A stretch of DNA of 42,916 nt, taken from a virus (lineage: Duplodnaviria > Heunggongvirae > Uroviricota > Caudoviricetes). The position numbers and the translations under genes are program-made. Below the pieces are notes generated by a model, which saw only the letters and a list, made by a program, of their open reading frames with translations, did no database searches and had not been told where the DNA came from. Of this stretch, positions 2,911 through 35,273 are shown piece by piece; within the stretch, counting starts at the first letter, position 1, and every line of letters starts with the position of its first letter. The DNA lies in IMG/VR virus record IMGVR_UViG_3300034157_000063. One strand, written 5' to 3'.

Positions 2911-3327
2911 ATGTTAAAGACAGTAAAAAAGCTTTTCGGATTTAAAGTTAAAGAAACTGAAGAAAAGGTTAGTATTTCGACCGTGGAACACGCCAAAAAA
3001 GAAGACCATGATCGTATCTTAGCAAAAGCTAGGCAAGAAAGAGCGGATCGTGAAAGGCGTGATCGTGAACGTATGCGAACATCTGACAGTGGCAGCGATG
3101 TATATTTAAGCCCATATCATCCATTGAATCCTATTCATAACACTTTCGATGATGACGCATCAAGCAAACATCGTAAACATGACAGTGGTTTCTCTGATGG
3201 TGGTAGTCCTGTGTATCATCATAATACACATGTTGGTGACAGTGGTGGTCATAGCCCTAGCAGCCCTAGCGGTGGTGGTGGTGGTGATAGTGGTGGCGGC
3301 GATGGCGGCGGTGGTGGTGGTGATTAA
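2911..3327 (+). CDS. Hypothetical protein with Gly/Ser/Asp low-complexity C-terminus
   Basis: SD GGAG; charged N-terminal half and SGGGGGDSGGGDGGGGGD tail. Confidence 0.75.
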   Translation: MLKTVKKLFGFKVKETEEKVSISTVEHAKKEDHDRILAKARQERADRERRDRERMRTSDSGSDVYLSPYHPLNPIHNTFDDDASSKHRKHDSGFSDGGSPVYHHNTHVGDSGGHSPSSPSGGGGGDSGGGDGGGGGGD

Positions 3328-21997: not shown

Positions 21998-22026
21998 TTG
22001 AATTATTTTAAGCGGGCTGTTATAAT
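21998..22026 (+). promoter_or_regulatory. sigma70 promoter of the Ser/Tyr leader
   Basis: TTGAAT-N17-TATAAT with extended -10 (TGtTATAAT); overlapped by inverted repeat CCGCTTGAA...TTTTAAGCGG. Confidence 0.8.
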
Positions 22027-22060: not shown

Positions 22061-22111
22061 ATGAAACCTACATTTGCTGTATCCTATTATTATTCATCAT
22101 ATTCTAGTTAA
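22061..22111 (+). CDS. Putative attenuator leader peptide MKPTFAVSYYYSSYSS
   Basis: SD GGAG 22048-22051; codons 8-16 are TCC TAT TAT TAT TCA TCA TAT TCT AGT, then TAA. Confidence 0.8.
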   Translation: MKPTFAVSYYYSSYSS

Positions 22112-22200
22112 CTGACCAGAGTAGAGGTCAGTTATGGCCTCGAATTCTTGGATAGTAATTATCTTAGACCCTTTGAAGGCCACCTTCAGAGGGTTTTTTT
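22109..22200 (+). promoter_or_regulatory. Attenuator RNA structure (pause hairpin, antiterminator, terminator)
   Basis: 9-bp hairpin TAACTGACC/GGTCAGTTA (22109-22134); TGGCCTCGAA (22135-22144) complementary to TTTGAAGGCCA (22172-22182); terminator overlaps that segment. Confidence 0.75.
22168..22200 (+). terminator. Intrinsic terminator (attenuator terminator)
   Basis: ACCCTTTGAAGG-CCA-CCTTCAGAGGGT (12 bp, one G-U) ending in a run of 7 T. Confidence 0.9.
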
Positions 22201-22290
22201 ATGTCCATAGTGGCAGGGTTAAGTTCAACCTAAAATAATGTAAGTTATTGATTTAAAAAGAAAACAGTTGAAAATAATTTAAAATAGTTG

Positions 22291-22319
22291 TTGACAAAGA
22301 CGAAAGAAGTTGATAGAAT
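22291..22319 (+). promoter_or_regulatory. Second, strong sigma70 promoter for the tRNA array with an A/T-rich UP-like element
   Basis: TTGACA-N17-TAGAAT preceded by AAAATAATTTAAAATAG. Confidence 0.8.
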
Positions 22320-22371: not shown

Positions 22372-22459
22372 GGAAGATTGGTCGAGTGGCCGATGGCGTC
22401 AGTCTTGAAAACTGAAGGGTGTAATAGCTCCGTGAGTTCGAATCTCACATCTTCCTCCA
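22372..22459 (+). tRNA. tRNA-Ser(UGA), atypical U73 discriminator
   Basis: Acceptor GGAAGAT/ATCTTCC, anticodon arm TCAGT-CTTGAAA-ACTGA, long variable arm, TTCGAAT T-loop, encoded CCA. Confidence 0.95.
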
Positions 22460-22481
22460 AATTTAGTTGTAACTGTATTAT

Positions 22482-22564
22482 GGGTGTTTGGCAGAGTGGC
22501 CGAATGCGACGGGCTGTAAACCCGTATCGAGAGACGCGGAGGTTCGAATCCTTCAGCACCCACC
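22482..22564 (+). tRNA. tRNA-Tyr(GUA)
   Basis: GGGTGTT/AGCACCC, ACGGG-CTGTAAA-CCCGT, A73-CCA. Confidence 0.95.
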
Positions 22565-22586
22565 AAATTAGATGTAAATAGTATAT

Positions 22587-22674
22587 GGAAGCTTGGCCGA
22601 GTGGTTTAAGGCAACAGTCTTGAAAACTGTCGAGTGTAACAGCTCCGTGAGTTCGAATCCCACAGCTTCCGCCA
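22587..22674 (+). tRNA. tRNA-Ser(UGA)
   Basis: GGAAGCT/AGCTTCC, ACAGT-CTTGAAA-ACTGT, G73-CCA. Confidence 0.97.
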
Positions 22675-22697
22675 AATTAGATACAATGTTTTATTAT

Positions 22698-22781
22698 GGG
22701 GGCTTCGCATAGAGGCCGATTGCGGGAGACTGTAAATCTTCATCGAGAGACACGGTGGTTCGAATCCATCAGCCCCCACCA
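22698..22781 (+). tRNA. tRNA-Tyr(GUA)
   Basis: GGGGGCT/AGCCCCC, GGAGA-CTGTAAA-TCTTC, A73-CCA. Confidence 0.95.
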
Positions 22782-22807
22782 AATTTAGATACAATAGTAA
22801 CAACAAT

Positions 22808-22896
22808 GGACGCCTTTCCTGTCAGCGGTCTGTAAAACCGCCGCCTTAATAAGACAGGTCGGTTGGCGTGAGGTTCGAATCCTTGGGCGTCCACCA
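22808..22896 (+). ncRNA. D-arm-less tRNA-Tyr(GUA)-like RNA with an expanded variable region
   Basis: GGACGCC/GGCGTCC acceptor, GCGGT-CTGTAAA-ACCGC anticodon arm, TGAGG-TTCGAAT-CCTTG T arm, ACCA end; only 10 nt where the D arm should be; 27-nt variable region. Confidence 0.85.
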
Positions 22897-22917
22897 AATT
22901 AGTTGTAAACCGTATAT

Positions 22918-23005
22918 GGAAGCTTGGCCGAGTGGTTTAAGGCAACAGTCTTGAAAACTGTCGAGTGTAACAGCTCCGTGAGTTCGAATCCCACAGCTTC
23001 CGCCA
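22918..23005 (+). tRNA. tRNA-Ser(UGA), identical copy of 22587-22674
   Basis: 88-nt exact repeat by eye comparison. Confidence 0.97.
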
Positions 23006-23011
23006 AATTAT

Positions 23012-23062
23012 GGGGAGAAGGGTTGGTTTTTATTTATAGAAGCCGATATCCGCTACCCACCA
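23012..23062 (+). ncRNA. Candidate 51-nt minihelix-like RNA ending in ACCA
   Basis: Begins AT|GG like the other array units; GGGGAG/CTACCC acceptor-like stem (one mismatch); TTGGTTTTT/AGAAGCCGA stem; ACCA 3' end. Confidence 0.45.
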
Positions 23063-23081
23063 TTTCATCGTCAAAAACTTG

Positions 23082-23109
23082 AAGAACAACGCAATGTTGT
23101 TCTTTTTTT
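23082..23109 (+). terminator. Terminator closing the tRNA array
   Basis: AAGAACAAC-GCAAT-GTTGTTCTT plus T-run. Confidence 0.85.
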
Positions 23110-23219
23110 GTTTTCAATTTATTTAAAACCACTCAAATTTTATTAATTCAAAACATTCTTGTAGACCAAACCTTAAAAATATCATAAGATATTAAAATAA
23201 ACTAGAAAAGGTTTGTTTA

Positions 23220-24122
23220 ATGTATCAATTACAATCATTTGCAAAAAATGAAAAAGGCAGAGACTTCATTGTGGGTGATATACATGGTATGTATGACTCA
23301 TTAATGAAACTTCTCGAATCCGTTAACTTCGATAAAAACATTGATCGACTATTTTCTGTGGGTGATTTAATAGATCGCGGCCCCAAATCAATGGAAGTGC
23401 TTTACCTTAATAACCAGAGTTGGTTTTTCTCCGTATTAGGGAATCATGAAACCATGTTGCTCACTGGTCATTTATCGTATTCAAAAGATTGGGTGACGAA
23501 TTTAAGTAAAAAACAAAAAGAAAAATGTCTGGATATTATCAAGACCTTACCGATTGCTATTGAAATAGAAACCAGTCTTGGCCCTATTGGATTGGTTCAT
23601 GCACAAGTGCCTACCCAGTTCAATGACTGGCATGAGTTCAAACACTATCTCACTGCAGCTAACCTATCCTATGAAATGAGTTCTATTAATGATTCTGGTA
23701 GTGTGATTAGAGATGCATTGTGGGGGAGAAAGCGTATTTACAGAGAATTGAAAAAGAATGGCACCGCCTTTGCCAGAAAAGCTTACATCAAATTTATTAA
23801 AGATGGCTTATGGAATAGAACGACCTTATACAGAATCATTACAACCCGAAAAACATTGCCTTACATCAAGCATGGGATATCATTCTCATTCAGATACATC
23901 ATTGAAAAATTTAAGCGAAAATTACATCATCAAAGTTATATCGACAATATAGCCTATACCTTTCATGGACACACACCTGTTAAGAAACCATTACTGTTAG
24001 GTAACCAGTTCTTTATAGATACGGGTGCTGTGTATGGAATGAAGAAAAACAAACAAGGATCTTTAACCATGATAGAAATTTGTGAGGATCTGAAAGTCCA
24101 CACATTAATTATCGACCAATAA
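23220..24122 (+). CDS. Calcineurin-like metallophosphoesterase (lambda NinI/PphA-type Ser/Thr phosphatase)
   Basis: GDIHG, VGDLIDRGP, LGNHE, VHA, LWGR, HGHT, IDTGA. Confidence 0.9.
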   Translation: MYQLQSFAKNEKGRDFIVGDIHGMYDSLMKLLESVNFDKNIDRLFSVGDLIDRGPKSMEVLYLNNQSWFFSVLGNHETMLLTGHLSYSKDWVTNLSKKQKEKCLDIIKTLPIAIEIETSLGPIGLVHAQVPTQFNDWHEFKHYLTAANLSYEMSSINDSGSVIRDALWGRKRIYRELKKNGTAFARKAYIKFIKDGLWNRTTLYRIITTRKTLPYIKHGISFSFRYIIEKFKRKLHHQSYIDNIAYTFHGHTPVKKPLLLGNQFFIDTGAVYGMKKNKQGSLTMIEICEDLKVHTLIIDQ

Positions 24123-28404: not shown

Positions 28405-29310
28405 TTAAATTTTAATCATTTCGACAAGGATAAAATATTCTTTTAGTTCTTCAGTGGTGAGTTCATTAACATCACATTTTCTCATTTTCAACGTTTCACA
28501 AATTACATTTTTAGCTTCTGCTTTAAATTGATTTTCGAAAAAATCTGTTAACGATTGATTGTCAACGTCAATGCTATTTAACTTTCTTAAAAAACCATTT
28601 TTCAAGGACTGTTCACTGGCAGCAAAATACATCCTTTCAGGATTATTGATGGGAATGATACACATTATCTTATTATGTGCTGAATAGGGTAATTTAATTT
28701 TAAAATATGGCTTAATTGTTTCATCAGGTTCTACAAGATGAATAACTTCGATATTAATATAGGACTTCTTAAAATAGTTCTTTTGAGCACCCATACCTTT
28801 TTGAAGAATATTATTGAAACTGACTGTTGCAATATTTTTGTCTTTAAATTTTAATTCATTGAAATAACCATTATTGGAGAAATGAGTGTTCATGTGTTGG
28901 TTATATTGTTTCATTTCAACACTGTTTAGCAATCCCGATTCAATACCTTTTTTAATGAAGATATCGACAATATTGAGAGCTTTCTCAAAATCTGGTTTAT
29001 ATTTTTCTTGAAAAAAATCAGCTATCTCATGACATTGCTGGCTCATAATAGACACCATCGTAGGCCCGTTAAACATAACACTGATTGTCGGGAAGTAGTG
29101 TAACTTTTCATAACTGCTTTTGATTCTATTTTCAAAAGAAATTTCCATAATCCATTTGTTATCTGCAGTTGTTGCTTTATAAATTGTGGTTGCAATAACA
29201 TTATTTGAAAACTTCGCTTGTTCTTCATTGTATTGATTAAATACAAATACAGGTGAAAGGGATCTCGCAAAATGATTAACAGATGACTTATTCAGTAATG
29301 TTTTAAACAT
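28405..29310 (-). CDS. Seven-paralog array member 7
   Basis: FNNILQK, KKSY, PYFKIKLPYS; ends ELKEYFILVEMIKI; start after GGAG. Confidence 0.85.
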   Translation of the reverse strand: MFKTLLNKSSVNHFARSLSPVFVFNQYNEEQAKFSNNVIATTIYKATTADNKWIMEISFENRIKSSYEKLHYFPTISVMFNGPTMVSIMSQQCHEIADFFQEKYKPDFEKALNIVDIFIKKGIESGLLNSVEMKQYNQHMNTHFSNNGYFNELKFKDKNIATVSFNNILQKGMGAQKNYFKKSYINIEVIHLVEPDETIKPYFKIKLPYSAHNKIMCIIPINNPERMYFAASEQSLKNGFLRKLNSIDVDNQSLTDFFENQFKAEAKNVICETLKMRKCDVNELTTEELKEYFILVEMIKI

Positions 29311-29381
29311 GAAAAACTCCACAATTATGACTAATTAATGGAGTATTATACCATATAACACTTAGCTAAGTCCATGTTTTG

Positions 29382-30305
29382 TTATATTTTAATCATCTCG
29401 ACCAGCATAAAATAATCTTTTAATTCATCGGGAGATAAATTATCTAATTCAGTTTTCTTAATTTTCAATGTTTTAGAAATCGTTGTTTTTATTTCATTTT
29501 CGATTTCACCCTTGAAATAGGCTGTTAATGCTTCTTTTTTTATGGGCATTGATAGTATTTTATCAATAGGCGTATATCTTAACGAATCATCATCACCCAC
29601 TAAATACATGGTGTCCACCCCACTGATTGGAATAACATAGGTGTTTTTATTGGTAGCTGACGTAGGTAATTTAATTTTGAAGTAAGGTTTCACATCATTG
29701 TTTGAATCCACTAAATGAATGATACCTACACTAATGAATGATTTTTTGAAATGTGTTCCATTTTTACCAGACCCTTTTTGAAGAACATTGTTAAAGGTTA
29801 TTCTGGCATAGTTTTTATCCCATATTGAAATAGTTCCATGATAGTGATTGATGTGCATGTGTGAAATCATGTGTCGTTTGTATCTTTTTACAGCAACACT
29901 CTTAAACAGACCAGAGTCAAGACCTTGTTCAATAAATATATCCAGAACATTAAAGACTTTATCGAAGTCAGGTTGATAGAGGTTTTCAAGAAAGTTGGCA
30001 ATGTCTACACTTTGTTGATTTCTTTCAGCCACTGATTCCTTAGTGAAATGGGTTAGCTTCTTTTTTGTGTCTTTTTCGAATGAAATATAGGGATAAAACT
30101 TTTTTCTAATAATGTTGCCTTGTTTTGTTCCGTAAAATTGTGTTACTAATTGCCAGCCTTCGTTAGCTTGTGCTATATATTTTGTAGATTCGCAATCATT
30201 AAAACCATCGTAATAATCATCGGTGTATTTTGAGTATTTAAACAACGGCTCAAAGATTTTGAGTATATTGTTGGCTTCTTGATGGTTCTTGTATGAGTTA
30301 AACAT
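29382..30305 (-). CDS. Seven-paralog array member 6
   Basis: Same motifs; ends ELKDYFMLVEMIKI. Confidence 0.85.
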   Translation of the reverse strand: MFNSYKNHQEANNILKIFEPLFKYSKYTDDYYDGFNDCESTKYIAQANEGWQLVTQFYGTKQGNIIRKKFYPYISFEKDTKKKLTHFTKESVAERNQQSVDIANFLENLYQPDFDKVFNVLDIFIEQGLDSGLFKSVAVKRYKRHMISHMHINHYHGTISIWDKNYARITFNNVLQKGSGKNGTHFKKSFISVGIIHLVDSNNDVKPYFKIKLPTSATNKNTYVIPISGVDTMYLVGDDDSLRYTPIDKILSMPIKKEALTAYFKGEIENEIKTTISKTLKIKKTELDNLSPDELKDYFMLVEMIKI

Positions 30306-30331
30306 AATATTCTCCAAAACGTTCCATTCGA

Positions 30332-31258
30332 TTAAATCTTCAGCATTTCAACGAGTACAAAATATTCTTTCAATTCTTCTGGTGTTATTCCATCCATATC
30401 TGATTTATTAATTTTCAATGTTTTAGAAATAGACGTTTTCATTTCTTTGTAAAACTCTTTATCAAAAAAATCTTTTAAATCTGTTTCGTCCATTGAAATT
30501 GAAGGCAATGTATCAATGCATTCTCTTCTCAACTTGTCATCGTTTGCCATGAAGTAGACAATAGGCTTTCCTGTTAATGGAATCACACATGTTGCTTTTC
30601 TAGACTCTGAATATGGTAATCTTATTTTGAAATAAGGGTGCATTGTGTTATCAGAGTGAGCTAGATAATCAATAGATACACTAATGTAGGATTTTTTGTA
30701 GTGAGTAGTGCCACGATAACCAGAAACCCCTTTCTGCAGGATATTGTTAAAAGTCACGGTGCCAAAGTTATTGTCGCCTATGGTAATAGTTCCAGAATAA
30801 TGATTGGTGTTTAAATGAGTTTTCATCACTTTTTTGTATTTTCTCTCTGCAAGGCTTTTGAACAATCCGCATTCAATTCCTTTCGCAACAAAGAGTTTAA
30901 GGACAGTAAACATTCTGTCAAAATCTGGATTATAGGTCTTTTGTAAGAGTTCTACAATTGCTTTGCCTTTTAGTCTTCTGTCTTTATGTTGTTCTTCGTC
31001 AAAATTACGAACACGCTCGCCCTGTTGTCTAAATTTAATTTCTGGATAATAGACTTTTACATCTTCTTTTGAGTTTTTATTGTTATAAAATGTAAGAATT
31101 AAAGCCCAGTTATCATCGGTTATGGCTGTATAGGTGGTAGCACAAAACCCTAAATCGGAAGAGTTAACGTTGACATCAAATTTCACAAAATTAAATACTG
31201 ATGAAAACAAAGTGACCAGATGGTTGGCTTCTAGGTGGTTCGGATAGGTATTAAACAT
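30332..31258 (-). CDS. Seven-paralog array member 5
   Basis: Same motifs; ends ELKEYFVLVEMLKI. Confidence 0.85.
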   Translation of the reverse strand: MFNTYPNHLEANHLVTLFSSVFNFVKFDVNVNSSDLGFCATTYTAITDDNWALILTFYNNKNSKEDVKVYYPEIKFRQQGERVRNFDEEQHKDRRLKGKAIVELLQKTYNPDFDRMFTVLKLFVAKGIECGLFKSLAERKYKKVMKTHLNTNHYSGTITIGDNNFGTVTFNNILQKGVSGYRGTTHYKKSYISVSIDYLAHSDNTMHPYFKIRLPYSESRKATCVIPLTGKPIVYFMANDDKLRRECIDTLPSISMDETDLKDFFDKEFYKEMKTSISKTLKINKSDMDGITPEELKEYFVLVEMLKI

Positions 31259-31324
31259 AATATACTCCAAAAATATTTAATAATTGTATCATAAACAAAT
31301 AATGATTGCCATTGTTTTTACAAT

Positions 31325-31352
31325 AAAAAAAAGACCTTTTCTAAGGTCTTTT
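31325..31352 (-). terminator. Intrinsic terminator inside the paralog array
   Basis: A-run-GACCTT-TTCT-AAGGTC-TTTT. Confidence 0.7.
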
Positions 31353-31365
31353 AATCAGCGTAATC

Positions 31366-32292
31366 TTACATTTTAACCATTTCTAACAAAATAAAATGAT
31401 TTCTTAATTCATCGTCCGCGAATTTAATCAAATCATTTTTTTTAATCTTTAATGTTCTTGACAGTACACTTATTATTTCGTTTCTAAATTCTTCTTTGAA
31501 GAAAGATTCCAAATATGTTTTATCTGTTGAATGTTGTTGGAGGTTATCAATAAATCCTTTTCTTAAATGATGATCGTCATTTGCAATATACATTTTTGAG
31601 CCATCAAAAGAAACCATACAGTTTATTTTCTTATGCGAAGAATATGGGAGTTTTATTTTAAAATAAGGCGTAATTTCATTGTCTGAACTGACCATGTATG
31701 CAATATCTATGCTTAGATGAGATTTTTTAAAATGGCTTTCCCCAGCTCTCAATGTTTGAAGCACATTATTAAATTTAATTTTTGCGAATACAACGCTATT
31801 AAAGAATAATCTATTATATCCTATTCCGTCTTCATACCTACGAAATTGTGTCATTGAATGTCTTTTATATGGCATAATTTTAACATTGTTATAGATACCA
31901 GTCTCAACACCTTGTTGAAGAAATATTTCTATAATCTCGATTGCTCTATCAAAGTTAGGATTGTATATATTTTGGAAATATTCAATGATGCTATCAGCTT
32001 GAACTTTATCAGCATCTTTTTCAGTATATGTTGATCTATCTCCATGTGAATATCTTTTATCTCTATGTTTTTCAAATTCAACACATGGATAATAATACCT
32101 AGTGTCTACATCTGTTTTCTCACCTTGTTCAAAAGCGGCAACGATATTCCAAGCATTATCATTTTCAGCTACATAGTTTGACTTATCATACTTGTCATTA
32201 CATTTTTCTTGAAACTTTGTAAAATTTAATACTGGGTTGAATAACTCTACTAATTTATTCATCTCAATGTAATTAGGACATTTTTTAAACAA
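31366..32292 (-). CDS. Seven-paralog array member 4
   Basis: Same motifs; TTG start after GGAG. Confidence 0.85.
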   Translation of the reverse strand: MFKKCPNYIEMNKLVELFNPVLNFTKFQEKCNDKYDKSNYVAENDNAWNIVAAFEQGEKTDVDTRYYYPCVEFEKHRDKRYSHGDRSTYTEKDADKVQADSIIEYFQNIYNPNFDRAIEIIEIFLQQGVETGIYNNVKIMPYKRHSMTQFRRYEDGIGYNRLFFNSVVFAKIKFNNVLQTLRAGESHFKKSHLSIDIAYMVSSDNEITPYFKIKLPYSSHKKINCMVSFDGSKMYIANDDHHLRKGFIDNLQQHSTDKTYLESFFKEEFRNEIISVLSRTLKIKKNDLIKFADDELRNHFILLEMVKM

Positions 32293-32376
32293 GATGTTCT
32301 CCAATATATTTATAAAATTAGCATAACATAAAAAATAAGAAATACTATTGTATACATATAATTTTATAGAATTTTC

Positions 32377-33258
32377 TTAATATTTTATCATATCAACAAG
32401 AATAAAATAATTTTTTAATTCATCTTGTGACAACTTCTTTAGATCTGCTTTTTTCATTTTTAAGGTTTTTGAAATTGAGTTTATGACTTCAATATTAAAA
32501 ATGTTTTTGAAATATAAATTTAAGGACTCATCATCTGTTTGATGAGCTTCTAAATGATCAATGAAGTTAAGTTGAAATTCATGATCTGTTTTAGTGAAAT
32601 ACATTTTAGAACAATCAAAAGATATAATACAGTTTACCTTTTTATGTGATGTATAAGGGAGTCGAATTTTAAAATATGGCATAAGTTGTTTATCGCTACC
32701 TACTAGGTATATGAAATCTATTGACATGACAGATTTTTTATAATTAGTTTCACCAGATCTTAAACTTTGAAGAATGTTATTAAAATTTATACTGGCATAA
32801 ATTCGATTGTAAACTCCATGTATATGTGTTCTTGAATGTCTTTCATATTTTTTTAGAGTAATCTTTTGAAATATTCCAGAATCTAAACCCTGCTTGGTAA
32901 AAATTTCAAGAATATTTATCATTCTGTCAAAATTAGGTTTATAAAGTTTATGAAAATAATTAATAAATTCGTCTGATCTTTGAATTTCTATTTTTCGTTC
33001 TTCGTCTGTTAAAGTAATATACCTATATTGTTCTTCATAATTTTTAAATTTGATAGATGGCGATTTTGCTAAATACCAATCATGTTTTTCAAAATGTTTT
33101 GGATAATTTATAACAATTCTCCATTTATCACTGGCTTCTGCAGTATAATTTACACCGTAATGTATATCAGTTTCTGTAAATTTTTCAAAATTTAAAAATG
33201 GTTTAAATAATTCAATAAAATTATTACTTTCGACATGAAAATCATATTTTTCAAACAC
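32377..33258 (-). CDS. Seven-paralog array member 3
   Basis: Same motifs; GTG start after GGAG. Confidence 0.85.
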   Translation of the reverse strand: MFEKYDFHVESNNFIELFKPFLNFEKFTETDIHYGVNYTAEASDKWRIVINYPKHFEKHDWYLAKSPSIKFKNYEEQYRYITLTDEERKIEIQRSDEFINYFHKLYKPNFDRMINILEIFTKQGLDSGIFQKITLKKYERHSRTHIHGVYNRIYASINFNNILQSLRSGETNYKKSVMSIDFIYLVGSDKQLMPYFKIRLPYTSHKKVNCIISFDCSKMYFTKTDHEFQLNFIDHLEAHQTDDESLNLYFKNIFNIEVINSISKTLKMKKADLKKLSQDELKNYFILVDMIKY

Positions 33259-33343
33259 TCGACACTCCAATATATGTTATACAATTAGCATAACATTAAA
33301 AACAATAAATACCATTGTATAGATATATTAAAGTATGATATTT

Positions 33344-34252
33344 TTAAATTTTTACCATTTCTACAAGAATAAAATATTCCTTCAATTCATCAGTTGTTAA
33401 TCCAGTTAATTCAGACTTCTTAATCTTTAATGTACCCACAATCACATTCTTGACTTCATTTTGTAGTTCTTTTTTAAAGAATGCTGATAGGGTCTTGTCA
33501 TCAATTGCGACTTCTTCATTCAGTGTGTCCACATATTTTTCTTTTAACGTATTATCTGATTCGGCCATATACATTTTAGAGCTTCTGCACAATGGAATAA
33601 CACAGGTAATTTTCTTTGTTGCTGAATAAGGTAGTCGAATCTTAAAATAAGGTTTCAACTCATTGTCAGAACTAAGTAGGTGGACTATTTCTATATTGAT
33701 GTAAGCTTTCTTGAACGATCTACCTTGACACTTACTATCTTTCTGCAGCACTTTATTGAATAATACAGTAGCACAATTAGTGTCATTAAATGATATTTGA
33801 TGATAATACTTATGCGTCCCAAAATAGTTACTAATATGTTGTGTTTCATCTTTTAATTTCACATTATTAAAAATTCCAATGTCAACGCCTTCTTTTATAA
33901 AAATATCAATAACATTAAGCACCTGATCAAAATCAGGAGTATACTTATTTTGAAATAGTTCAGTGAGTTCAGCCACCTTATCTCGTTTAATAGCCGTTAC
34001 ATAATCAGATACAGTTCGTTCAAACTTAACTTCTGGATAATAATGTTTTTGGTCGTGTTTACTTCTAAAACGGTTATCGAATGACACAACCATTTTCCAA
34101 TTATCGTCAGTGTTGGCTGTATAAATTGTTGTCCCAATATCCCTTTCATAGCTTTTATGATTTTCTTCATGGAATGTGGTAAAGTTAAATACGGATGAAA
34201 CTTGTTCAACCAGTTTATTAACATCCTCGCAATTTTTATATTTTTCAAACAT
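33344..34252 (-). CDS. Seven-paralog array member 2
   Basis: Same motifs; ATG start after GGAG. Confidence 0.85.
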   Translation of the reverse strand: MFEKYKNCEDVNKLVEQVSSVFNFTTFHEENHKSYERDIGTTIYTANTDDNWKMVVSFDNRFRSKHDQKHYYPEVKFERTVSDYVTAIKRDKVAELTELFQNKYTPDFDQVLNVIDIFIKEGVDIGIFNNVKLKDETQHISNYFGTHKYYHQISFNDTNCATVLFNKVLQKDSKCQGRSFKKAYINIEIVHLLSSDNELKPYFKIRLPYSATKKITCVIPLCRSSKMYMAESDNTLKEKYVDTLNEEVAIDDKTLSAFFKKELQNEVKNVIVGTLKIKKSELTGLTTDELKEYFILVEMVKI

Positions 34253-34288
34253 AATTGGCTCCAAATAATTATTGATTACTACAAAAGT

Positions 34289-35206
34289 TCAAATGTTCAC
34301 CATTTCAACGAGAACAAAATATTCTTTCAAGTCATTAATAGTTAAATCTTTCAAGTCTGTTTTACTAATTTTTAAACGAGCTGCAATTGTGCTTTTGATT
34401 TGTTTCTCAAATAATTGTGTAAACATATCATGAATATTAGATTCATTTAAAGCTTCTGATGTTTGTTGGTCTATATGGTATTTTTCCAAATGGTTATCAT
34501 CCAAAAAGAAATACCCTTTATCACCCGTCATTGAAAGTACACAACTGATTTTCTTATTTTCAAAATAAGGTAACCGAAGTTTAAAATAAGGGTGCATTGT
34601 ATTATCAGAATGCACCAAGTAAATAACATCCACATTGATGTAAGATTTCTTAAAATGCTTTGCCTGTATACCATCGCCTTTTTGTAGAATATTGTTAAAA
34701 TATACATCTGCGATGTTTTGATCTGTCATGTGAATTTTTTTGTCATAATGATGAGATAAAACATGAGATTCAATGCTTTTTTTGTAGTATTTTTTATCGA
34801 CTACGTTAATCACGCCAGCTTGGGTGCCTACATCAATGAACCAGTCCATAATTTCAGTAATTTTATCAAAATTAGGGGTATACATAGTTTCTAACATACG
34901 AACAATAGATCTAACATCATTTCTAATCTTATCAGAGTTGAAGACTTGGACTTCATTGTCAACAAAAACGAGTTTGGCAATCTTATGTTTAAGTTGCTGC
35001 TGGTTTTTATGGGTTTTAAGTGGATTCATGAATGTTACTTCAATATCTCTTTGACCTACTTGTGATGTGGCCTCATACATAGTTTTAAAGACATAACCGT
35101 GCCGGTCAGCGTAGTTTTCTTCTTTGAAGGTGTTAAATTGAAAGTCGTTTTTCAATGTCATTAACAGATTGTTGACTTCAATATGATTTGGATAGATTTT
35201 AAACAT
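34289..35206 (-). CDS. Seven-paralog array member 1
   Basis: Same motifs; ATG 35206 after GGAG. Confidence 0.85.
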   Translation of the reverse strand: MFKIYPNHIEVNNLLMTLKNDFQFNTFKEENYADRHGYVFKTMYEATSQVGQRDIEVTFMNPLKTHKNQQQLKHKIAKLVFVDNEVQVFNSDKIRNDVRSIVRMLETMYTPNFDKITEIMDWFIDVGTQAGVINVVDKKYYKKSIESHVLSHHYDKKIHMTDQNIADVYFNNILQKGDGIQAKHFKKSYINVDVIYLVHSDNTMHPYFKLRLPYFENKKISCVLSMTGDKGYFFLDDNHLEKYHIDQQTSEALNESNIHDMFTQLFEKQIKSTIAARLKISKTDLKDLTINDLKEYFVLVEMVNI

Positions 35207-35273
35207 AACATTCTCCACAAATATTTGCCATATTGTATCATAATTCATTAGAAAACGCTATTGAAATAGATGC

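Follow-up and report, generated by a model that had tools for sequence, protein, structure and literature searches.

A serine/tyrosine tRNA operon of a megaphage: tRNA-Tyr anticodon-stem turnover, a predicted pseudoknotted tRNA-Tyr and a candidate leader-peptide attenuator

Why would a phage keep an operon of serine and tyrosine tRNAs only, each in several copies? The question is raised by positions 22372-23005 of a 42,916-nucleotide stretch of Caudoviricetes DNA (IMG/VR record IMGVR_UViG_3300034157_000063), the whole of which was analysed and is called the window below. A first-pass annotation of this array had proposed that its redundant and diversified tRNA copies are a hedge against tRNA-cleaving defence nucleases rather than a supplement to codon usage. 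Our results lead to a divided answer: in our judgement the chances are evenly balanced that the tyrosine half of the operon is evasion layered on supply, and the serine half supply. This answer comes from the anticodon stems of the tRNA-Tyr genes and from a tRNA-Tyr gene of non-canonical, pseudoknotted architecture.

The operon and the anticodon stems of its tRNA-Tyr genes

The operon consists of the following genes:
22372-22459, plus strand: tRNA-Ser(UGA) of type S1 (ARAGORN; RF00005, 52.8 bits)
22482-22565, plus strand: class II canonical tRNA-Tyr(GUA), anticodon stem ACGGG/CCCGT (ARAGORN; RF00005, 60 bits)
22587-22674, plus strand: tRNA-Ser(UGA) of type S2 (ARAGORN; RF00005)
22698-22781, plus strand: class II canonical tRNA-Tyr(GUA), anticodon stem GGAGA/TCTTC (ARAGORN; RF00005)
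22808-22896, plus strand: pseudoknotted, non-canonical tRNA-Tyr(GUA), anticodon stem GCGGT/ACCGC (missed by ARAGORN and RF00005)
22918-23005, plus strand: tRNA-Ser(UGA) of type S2, second copy (ARAGORN; RF00005)

The three GUA-loop RNAs have the anticodon stems quoted in the first-pass annotation, together with the loop CTGTAAA. The array of Ser/Tyr tRNAs that it described is correct for the five canonical genes, but the third GUA-loop RNA is non-canonical and has no D hairpin. The five are called alike by ARAGORN and by the Rfam family RF00005 (50.5-60 bits), and all are members of this family by a test that asks for the gathering score of 29 bits and also for acceptor, D, anticodon and T arms. 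Each gene of the operon, the pseudoknotted one included, has an encoded CCA end followed by a similar spacer starting with AATT(T)AG, which argues for a processing of the pseudoknotted RNA like that of its neighbours.

Judged from its sequence, the source of the window is a megaphage, whose closest relative is a 437-kb IMG/VR contig (G001; operon locus L001) of 98% completeness according to CheckV. DNA synteny with this relative is found on either side of the array, and the phosphatase adjoining the array is 79% identical to the copy on the relative. Operon order, leader and pseudoknotted RNA are kept in three other megaphage contigs, namely the 437-kb relative, a 604-kb metagenome contig (L271) and a 520-kb metagenome contig (L276), the latter two having been compared around the operon region only. 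The operon of the 437-kb relative runs Ser CGA, Ser GCU, Tyr, Tyr, Ser UGA, pseudoknotted RNA, Ser AGA, and that of L271 has the same gene content; the order in L276 is Ser AGA, Ser GCU, Tyr, Tyr, pseudoknotted RNA, Ser UGA, Tyr, Ser UGA. The operons of the three relatives are thus limited to Ser and Tyr isotypes, with CGA, GCU, UGA and AGA as Ser anticodons. The earlier remark that only two isotypes are present is therefore accurate for this operon and for those of its relatives, but does not extend to the genome of the 437-kb relative, which has 27 tRNA matches, arranged in several clusters and covering many isotypes.

In the operon, three distinct genomes can be compared: the window, L001 (to which L271 is equal) and L276. 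The Tyr genes share a length of 84 nt and the Ser(NGA) genes one of 88 nt, which allowed a comparison position by position. The nearest orthologue of the window Tyr gene at 22698-22781 is the third Tyr gene of L276. The differences are the following:
Tyr-1, L001 versus L276: 6/10 positions changed in the anticodon stem, 2/67 elsewhere
Tyr-2, L001 versus L276: 4/10 in the anticodon stem, 5/67 elsewhere
Window Tyr-2 versus L276 Tyr-3: 3/10 in the anticodon stem, 6/67 elsewhere
Pseudoknotted gene, window/L001 versus L276: 4/10 in the anticodon stem (two swapped pairs), 0/72 elsewhere
Tyr-type pairs pooled: 17/40 in the anticodon stem, 13/273 elsewhere
Ser pairs pooled: 0/40 in the anticodon stem, 6/284 elsewhere

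The signature of escape, i.e. change concentrated in the recognition region, is seen in the Tyr-type genes of these three distinct genomes (Fisher test on the pooled Tyr-type pairs, p about 1e-9, the true significance being lower because paired sites are not independent). Every stem change in a Tyr-type gene preserves pairing. The anticodon stems of the Tyr-type genes are all distinct within a genome, and they differ between related phages. Judged from these sequences, the pattern of the operon is beyond chance, with its conserved order, leader and odd RNA and with Tyr differences that cluster in the anticodon stem.

The Ser genes behave differently. Their change is mainly at the wobble base, which is U, A or C within one gene lineage: the Ser gene at 22372-22459 has UGA in the window, AGA in L276 (2/88 differences, one of them in the anticodon) and CGA in L001. 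A Ser anticodon with A34 is unusual for bacteria. The second and third Ser genes of the window (22587-22674 and 22918-23005) are identical (88/88), and the same sequence is found as one Ser(UGA) gene of L276. As the two copies are equal and their type is unchanged in a relative, Ser is redundant and not diversified. Of the proposed combination of redundancy and diversification, both terms suit Tyr (17/40 in the stem against 13/273 elsewhere), whereas the Ser genes keep redundancy alone. The type S2 Ser(UGA) gene is moreover widely shared, a 37-nt string spanning its D arm and anticodon arm being found exactly in 11 unrelated viral contigs.

One further observation was made on the Tyr stems. 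The first and second Tyr genes of L276 have 20/67 differences outside the stem, yet their stems, TTTGA and CTTGA, are near-equal. This likeness suggests that either short-patch conversion or convergent selection has acted inside the L276 genome.

The pseudoknotted tRNA-Tyr and other tRNA-like elements

The gene at 22808-22896 is laid out as follows, all on the plus strand:
22808-14/22886-92: acceptor stem (7 bp)
22818-23/22853-58: helix a
22825-29/22837-41: anticodon stem (5 bp), with the anticodon GTA at 22832-34 in the loop CUGUAAA
22842-45/22865-68: helix b
22859-64: GG-bearing loop
22869-85: T arm
22893: A73
22894-96: CCA

There is no D hairpin, and merely ten bases lead from the acceptor stem to the anticodon stem. 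Six of these ten bases (CCTGTC) are predicted to pair, as helix a, with GACAGG in what would be the loop of the variable arm. The stem of this variable arm (helix b, CGCC/GGCG) closes around the helix-a strand, which would create a pseudoknot, and the GG loop follows the returning strand. The gene has no RF00005 match at E values up to 10, its best match being tRNA-Sec with 23.7 bits for a threshold of 47, and ARAGORN in bacterial mode finds nothing there. The fold given by ARAGORN in mitochondrial mode is a different and forced one, and was rejected as unconvincing.

The pseudoknotted gene is identical over 89/89 positions in the window, L001 and L271, and it belongs to a larger family. Pattern scans of viral, metagenome and genome collections retrieved more than 50 distinct sequences, which fall into two classes, A and B. 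A joint MAFFT alignment of both classes was structurally inconsistent, so that alignments per class and an anchor-based parse were used. In an alignment of 31 sequences, 95% of the cells are paired, compared to 38-48% after sliding the partners. Helix a is 99.5% paired over these sequences, with 4/6 pairs changed on both sides, and the same helix is found in class B; helix b is 96.8% paired, with 2/4 pairs changed on both sides, and occurs as CGCC/GGCG, CTGC/GCAG, CCTT/AAGG or CCGC/GCGG. A covariance model built from class A gives 95.5 bits to the window copy, 31-52 bits to class B, on which it was not trained, and at most 26 bits to canonical tRNAs. The window copy has all the marks of the family, namely GUA in a 7-nt loop, A73, GG after the second strand of helix a and a canonical T loop. 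Our literature search found no paper describing a phage tRNA that is pseudoknotted or lacks the D arm.

Several observations bear on the function of this RNA. In scans that left the anticodon free, every true member carries GUA; the one for class B, in which the gap was set too short, retrieved only a few sequences. Across the family, the T loop, A73 and the GG motif are retained. In arrays with 16-20 other isotypes, the pseudoknotted RNA occupies the Tyr slot. A complete phage of 156 kb (G004) has 19 canonical tRNAs, none of them Tyr, plus the pseudoknotted RNA, and a complete phage of 68 kb (G006) has Gln, Ser and the pseudoknotted RNA as its only tRNAs; neither has tyrS. Rare genes on the same scaffold have other anticodons: a Cys(GCA) gene with U73 (L157 8433-8520, plus strand) and an Arg(UCU) gene with G73 (L154 663-747, minus strand). 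By established identity rules, Cys and Arg tRNAs require the discriminators U73 and G73, respectively. The isotype-correct discriminators of these two genes argue for charging and decoding, and their existence indicates that the architecture is not strictly limited to tyrosine. By these sequence criteria, the pseudoknotted family looks real and functional, and the window gene would be a chargeable, decoding tRNA and not a relic. As standard annotation misses it, phage tRNA-Tyr genes are under-counted.

Other tRNA-like elements were also seen. A 51-nt hairpin (23012-23062, plus strand; fold z-score -2.3), preceded by the usual inter-tRNA spacer, starts with GGGGAG and ends with CCC-A-CCA. Hairpins with the same ends occur twice in L001 (3431-3482 and about 3125-3213) and once in L276 (minus strand), where the hairpin is flanked by the third Tyr gene and the final Ser gene. 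These hairpin-ACCA elements have conserved ends (starting with GGGRAG), variable interiors and a mismatch that recurs at acceptor pair 4:69. Possible identities are tRNA minihelices, acting as substrates or decoys of 3'-end enzymes, or gutted remnants of tRNA-Tyr. Another recurrent element of about 75 nt was found in the viral contigs L035, L036, L044, L048, L058, L060 and others, often directly after a tRNA. Its 5' strand, ending in ATCTCTGTA, pairs with a 3' TACGGAGA-CCA; it has a T arm and no obvious anticodon arm.

Leader region, genome context and alternative explanations

The regulatory features around the operon are the following:
21998-22026, plus strand: promoter-like P1, TTGAAT, 17 nt, TATAAT, with TG before the second hexamer (consensus scan, 10/12)
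22061-22111, plus strand: leader open reading frame (ORF) MKPTFAVSYYYSSYSS of 16 codons, with GGAG 9 nt before the ATG; its last 9/9 codons are Ser or Tyr
22112-22203, plus strand: hairpin that immediately follows the leader stop codon, and beyond it an intrinsic terminator (stem 22166-22196 and T run; terminator scan and folds)
22291-22319, plus strand: promoter-like P2, near-consensus, TTGACA, 17 nt, TAGAAT, 53 nt before the first tRNA (11/12)
23081-23112, plus strand: terminator-like hairpin and T run closing the operon (terminator scan)

P1, a match to the consensus only, lies upstream of the leader ORF, about 300 nt upstream of the tRNA operon, and is conserved in L001, L271 and L276. The leader peptides of the relatives, MKTTLMTTSYYYSYYSH in L001/L271 and MKPTFKFSSSYYYSYSR in L276, keep the Ser/Tyr run, and S-Y-Y-Y-S-x-Y-S is common to all three distinct peptides. 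The leader hairpin and the terminator are also kept in the relatives, with some changes compensated (folds of three orthologues). An alternative, antiterminator pairing GGCCT/AGGCC can be drawn by eye, three sequences being too few to judge it. The leader terminator is separated from the tRNAs by 170 nt on the same strand, with P2, whose hexamers are invariant in all four genomes, in between. Taken together, the leader region is a candidate ribosome-mediated attenuator that would sense the decoding of Ser and Tyr codons, with a putative antiterminator pairing. When charged Ser or Tyr tRNA is short, the ribosome would stall in the leader, the terminator would not form, and read-through would add to the output of the strong promoter. 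Our literature search found no report of leader-peptide control of a tRNA operon.

The 437-kb relative also encodes aminoacyl-tRNA synthetases and an RNA ligase, at these positions of G001:
230.8 kb: serS (TIGR00414, 505 bits), 29 kb upstream of the operon
243.1 kb: tyrS, of bacterial type (TIGR00234, 381 bits), 16 kb upstream of the operon
414.6 kb: trpS
209 kb: a fourth synthetase, of class IIa
363 kb: an RNA ligase like T4 Rnl1

In a profile search, no RtcB and no member of the tRNA-synt_1 (class I) or tRNA-synt_2 (class IIb) families was found in this relative. As the left end of the window aligns directly downstream of the relative's tyrS, the window phage probably has its tyrS orthologue just outside the window. 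Two other tRNAs of the relative are unusual, one being of the amber-suppressor type, tRNA(CUA) (L031 2308-2381), and the other having an 8-nt anticodon loop (L012 2097-2172).

These results raise the alternative that the operon serves translational autonomy only. It would supply Ser and Tyr tRNAs for an AT-rich, Tyr-rich proteome, the leader would tune the output, and the stem differences would be neutral or would tune decoding. The presence of serS and tyrS within 30 kb of the relative's operon, its 27 tRNAs, the four Ser anticodons of the relatives and the leader rich in Ser and Tyr codons all fit this explanation, as does the Ser(UGA) type, a widespread and conserved phage tRNA. Codon use, compared within the phage only, points the same way in that Tyr makes up 4.9% of codons and that TCA is the commonest Ser codon, Ser accounting for 7.2%. 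However, Lys, Ile, Leu, Glu, Asp, Asn, Val, Phe and Thr each have a codon share at least as high as that of Tyr, yet no operon of this kind serves any of these nine amino acids here, and neither Ser nor Tyr stands out in codon use. Translational autonomy also leaves unexplained why change is confined to the anticodon stem of the Tyr-type genes, why a rewired tRNA-Tyr is retained base for base, and why small complete phages with three tRNAs devote one gene to pseudoknotted Tyr. We therefore find it possible, but rather doubtful, that supply is the whole explanation. Supply and defence evasion probably coexist.

A second, unlikely alternative is that the phage itself drives the replacement of tRNA-Tyr, or that phages compete: a nuclease of this phage or of competing megaphages would destroy the tRNA-Tyr of the host or of a rival, each phage's own Tyr genes would be immune, and their stems would track the phage's own weapon and not a host defence. 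The diversity of the stems, between related phages as well as among the copies of one genome, is compatible with it, and the near-equal stems TTTGA and CTTGA on dissimilar Tyr genes of L276 would fit a shared selective agent. The neighbouring ORFs, mostly without family, leave room for such an enzyme, but none of the family matches in the window suggests a tRNase, and this explanation is speculative.

It is quite improbable, thirdly, that the pseudoknotted RNA is a decoy or inhibitor soaking up an enzyme that binds tRNA-Tyr, be it a nuclease, a modifier or the tyrosyl-tRNA synthetase (TyrRS), instead of decoding. Such a role would suit an RNA in which the anticodon loop of tRNA-Tyr is complete and A73 and CCA are present, but not the canonical core, and which stands, in this lineage, beside two or three canonical Tyr genes. 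It is at odds with near-complete arrays and with two complete phages where the pseudoknotted RNA is the sole Tyr tRNA, and with the Cys and Arg genes bearing isotype-correct discriminators on the same scaffold. Finally, that the pseudoknotted RNA and the hairpin-ACCA element are decaying, functionless tRNA pseudogenes, as their being missed by standard finders might suggest, is highly improbable, this being contradicted for the pseudoknotted RNA by its 100% identity across genomes whose flanks are about 70-80% identical and by the strong covariation of its family, which has more than 50 sequences.

The surroundings of the operon are as follows. G+C content is about 33% in the window, coding is dense (ORF coverage of 88% under the standard code), and most ORFs have no known family in Pfam or PHROGs, with one PHROG match to a virion protein inside the window. 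DNA and protein searches of the GenBank phage collection gave no close phage relative, the matches being to tRNA-Ser only, and no related viral loci were retrieved with the flanking 301-aa protein. Pfam and PHROGs searches of the neighbouring ORFs in the window gave no nuclease, homing endonuclease or tRNA enzyme tied to the array. Directly after the operon, at 23220-24122, lies a lambda-phosphatase-like metallophosphoesterase, with further matches to ApaH, to the Pnkp phosphoesterase domain (a weak one) and to a PHROG in which the phosphoesterase domain is fused to an RNA ligase. RNA-end healing by this enzyme is possible; a tRNA-healing role, which could not be told apart from that of an ordinary NinI-type phosphatase, was dropped as a candidate, the gene lying 2.4 kb from the array in the relative. 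Further away, the minus strand of 28405-35248 encodes seven tandem paralogues of 297-319 aa with 27-44% mutual identity, a diversified family to which Pfam assigns neither a family nor a role.

Evasion of tRNA nucleases and comparison with known systems

Phage tRNA-Tyr is already known as a counter-defence. PtuAB of retron-Eco7 (Ec78) and Septu deplete tRNA-Tyr, the cut being in the variable-arm stem, and T5 escapes by its own tRNA-Tyr and T6 by amplification of its tRNA-Tyr gene (PMC11555353, PMC13096335). P2-OLD, which prefers tRNA-Thr(UGU), severs the anticodon stem on both strands where a paired CNG motif is present; phage tRNA-Thr with an altered stem resists it, and the damage is beyond repair by ligases (PMC12445682). 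The question raised earlier of whether tRNA-Ser(UGA) is also a target has an answer outside the phage-defence setting, as it is listed among the targets of VapC (PMC10264068). The isotypes of the operon thus match published targets, Tyr for PtuAB/Septu and Ser(UGA) for VapC.

In the reading that we favour, the operon would keep Tyr and Ser decoding going during infection. Multiple Tyr copies would be retained because a host or rival nuclease, reading features of the stem or of the variable arm, attacks tRNA-Tyr. With varied stems and one rewired D/variable region, at least one phage Tyr copy would escape, the pseudoknotted copy being remodelled at the variable arm, i.e. at the published PtuAB/Septu cut site. 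The Ser genes would be supply, not evasion. The idea of a hedge against nucleases consequently applies to Tyr, with its stem swaps, its rewired variable arm and the P2-OLD precedent, but not to Ser, whose copies are identical or conserved.

The CNG motif gives a further lead. It is paired in window Tyr-1 and in the pseudoknotted gene, and in no Tyr-type gene of L276; both stem swaps of L276, relative to the motif-bearing orthologues, remove the paired C28-N-G30/C40-N-G42. This loss may point to an agent of the P2-OLD kind, but is only a lead.

Several points weigh against the favoured reading. The stem hot spot comes from no more than three distinct genomes, in which the two changes of a stem pair do not count as independent events. 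Other pseudoknotted lineages keep one anticodon stem among close relatives, which means that a rapid turnover of stems is not the general rule. The Ser genes carry the paired CNG in every genome, so that a P2-OLD-like enzyme alone cannot explain the pattern. No nuclease or defence system was identified by Pfam and PHROGs among the window ORFs. Depletion of tRNA-Tyr by PtuAB and the escape of T5, on which the first-pass annotation relied, are published, but one structural study saw no cleavage of tRNA-Tyr by PtuAB in vitro, and even this model system is thus not settled. The attenuator may matter little, as a strong promoter separates it from the tRNAs, and translational autonomy alone would account just as well for the leader, for serS and tyrS, and for the several Ser anticodons of the relatives.

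One wider possibility, which we put forward tentatively as something short of probable, is that all these elements form a self-contained, demand-sensing module for Tyr and Ser decoding, in which phage TyrRS and seryl-tRNA synthetase would act with a leader-switched operon and with a Tyr set including a chargeable, pseudoknotted tRNA that nucleases would not see. If this is true, the pseudoknotted tRNA would be invisible to nucleases that read the canonical D/variable arm or particular anticodon stems; its architecture would be new among natural tRNAs, and the operon would be the first tRNA operon known under ribosome-mediated attenuation, its leader peptide coupling the expression of tRNA genes to the supply of those same tRNAs. 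As far as the literature searched shows, the stem-confined turnover, the pseudoknotted architecture and the leader peptide before a tRNA operon are new. Counter-defence by phage tRNAs is a young field with few cases (T5/T6 tRNA-Tyr, T5 tRNA-Lys, tRNA-Thr against OLD), to which this locus would add a natural arms-race signature in the tRNA-Tyr anticodon stem. The pseudoknotted core also offers a means to probe the limits of acceptance by TyrRS, EF-Tu and the ribosome.

Comparison with known RNAs and systems delimits what is shared and what differs. With canonical class II tRNA-Tyr (RF00005), the pseudoknotted gene shares a 7-bp acceptor stem, A73, CCA, a T arm with the loop TTCGAAT, a 5-bp anticodon stem and the loop CUGUAAA; unlike it, it has no D hairpin, the 6-nt strand after U8-U9 pairs with the variable-arm loop, and its RF00005 score is below threshold. 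Some animal mitochondrial tRNAs work without a D arm, and the phage RNA would likewise function without a D hairpin; whereas these tRNAs are truncated, the phage RNA would rebuild a D-stem-like helix and a GG loop from its variable region. Enterobacterial trp, his, pheA and pheST are controlled by leader-peptide attenuation upstream of genes for the sensed amino acids. The leader described here resembles theirs by its short ORF with regulatory codons, its hairpins, which are putative alternatives, and its intrinsic terminator, but the genes controlled would be tRNAs, two amino acids would be sensed, and a second strong promoter stands past the terminator.

In T5 and T6, a strong promoter drives the phage's own tRNA-Tyr, additional copies are of benefit, and the resistance of the phage tRNA has been attributed to its differing variable arm. 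Similarly, three Tyr-type genes stand here behind a near-consensus promoter, one of them with a remodelled variable region. In contrast to T5 and T6, change is focused here on the anticodon stem, the architecture of one copy is new, and the case is known from sequence alone. The Tyr copies are also old and divergent and not a recent SegB-type amplification, as their spacers differ and no homing-endonuclease family was found beside the array. An agent such as P2-OLD, whose specificity is in the sequence of the anticodon stem, could be behind a turnover limited to the stem; P2-OLD nevertheless prefers tRNA-Thr(UGU), and the Ser genes here keep its motif. Lastly, evasion of VapC, PrrC and colicins has been proposed for mycobacteriophage tRNAs with variant anticodon loops (PMC10264068). 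These tRNAs share with the present locus the idea of escape from tRNases, but their variation lies in the loop, which is invariant in the genes described here, the variable part of the latter being the stem.

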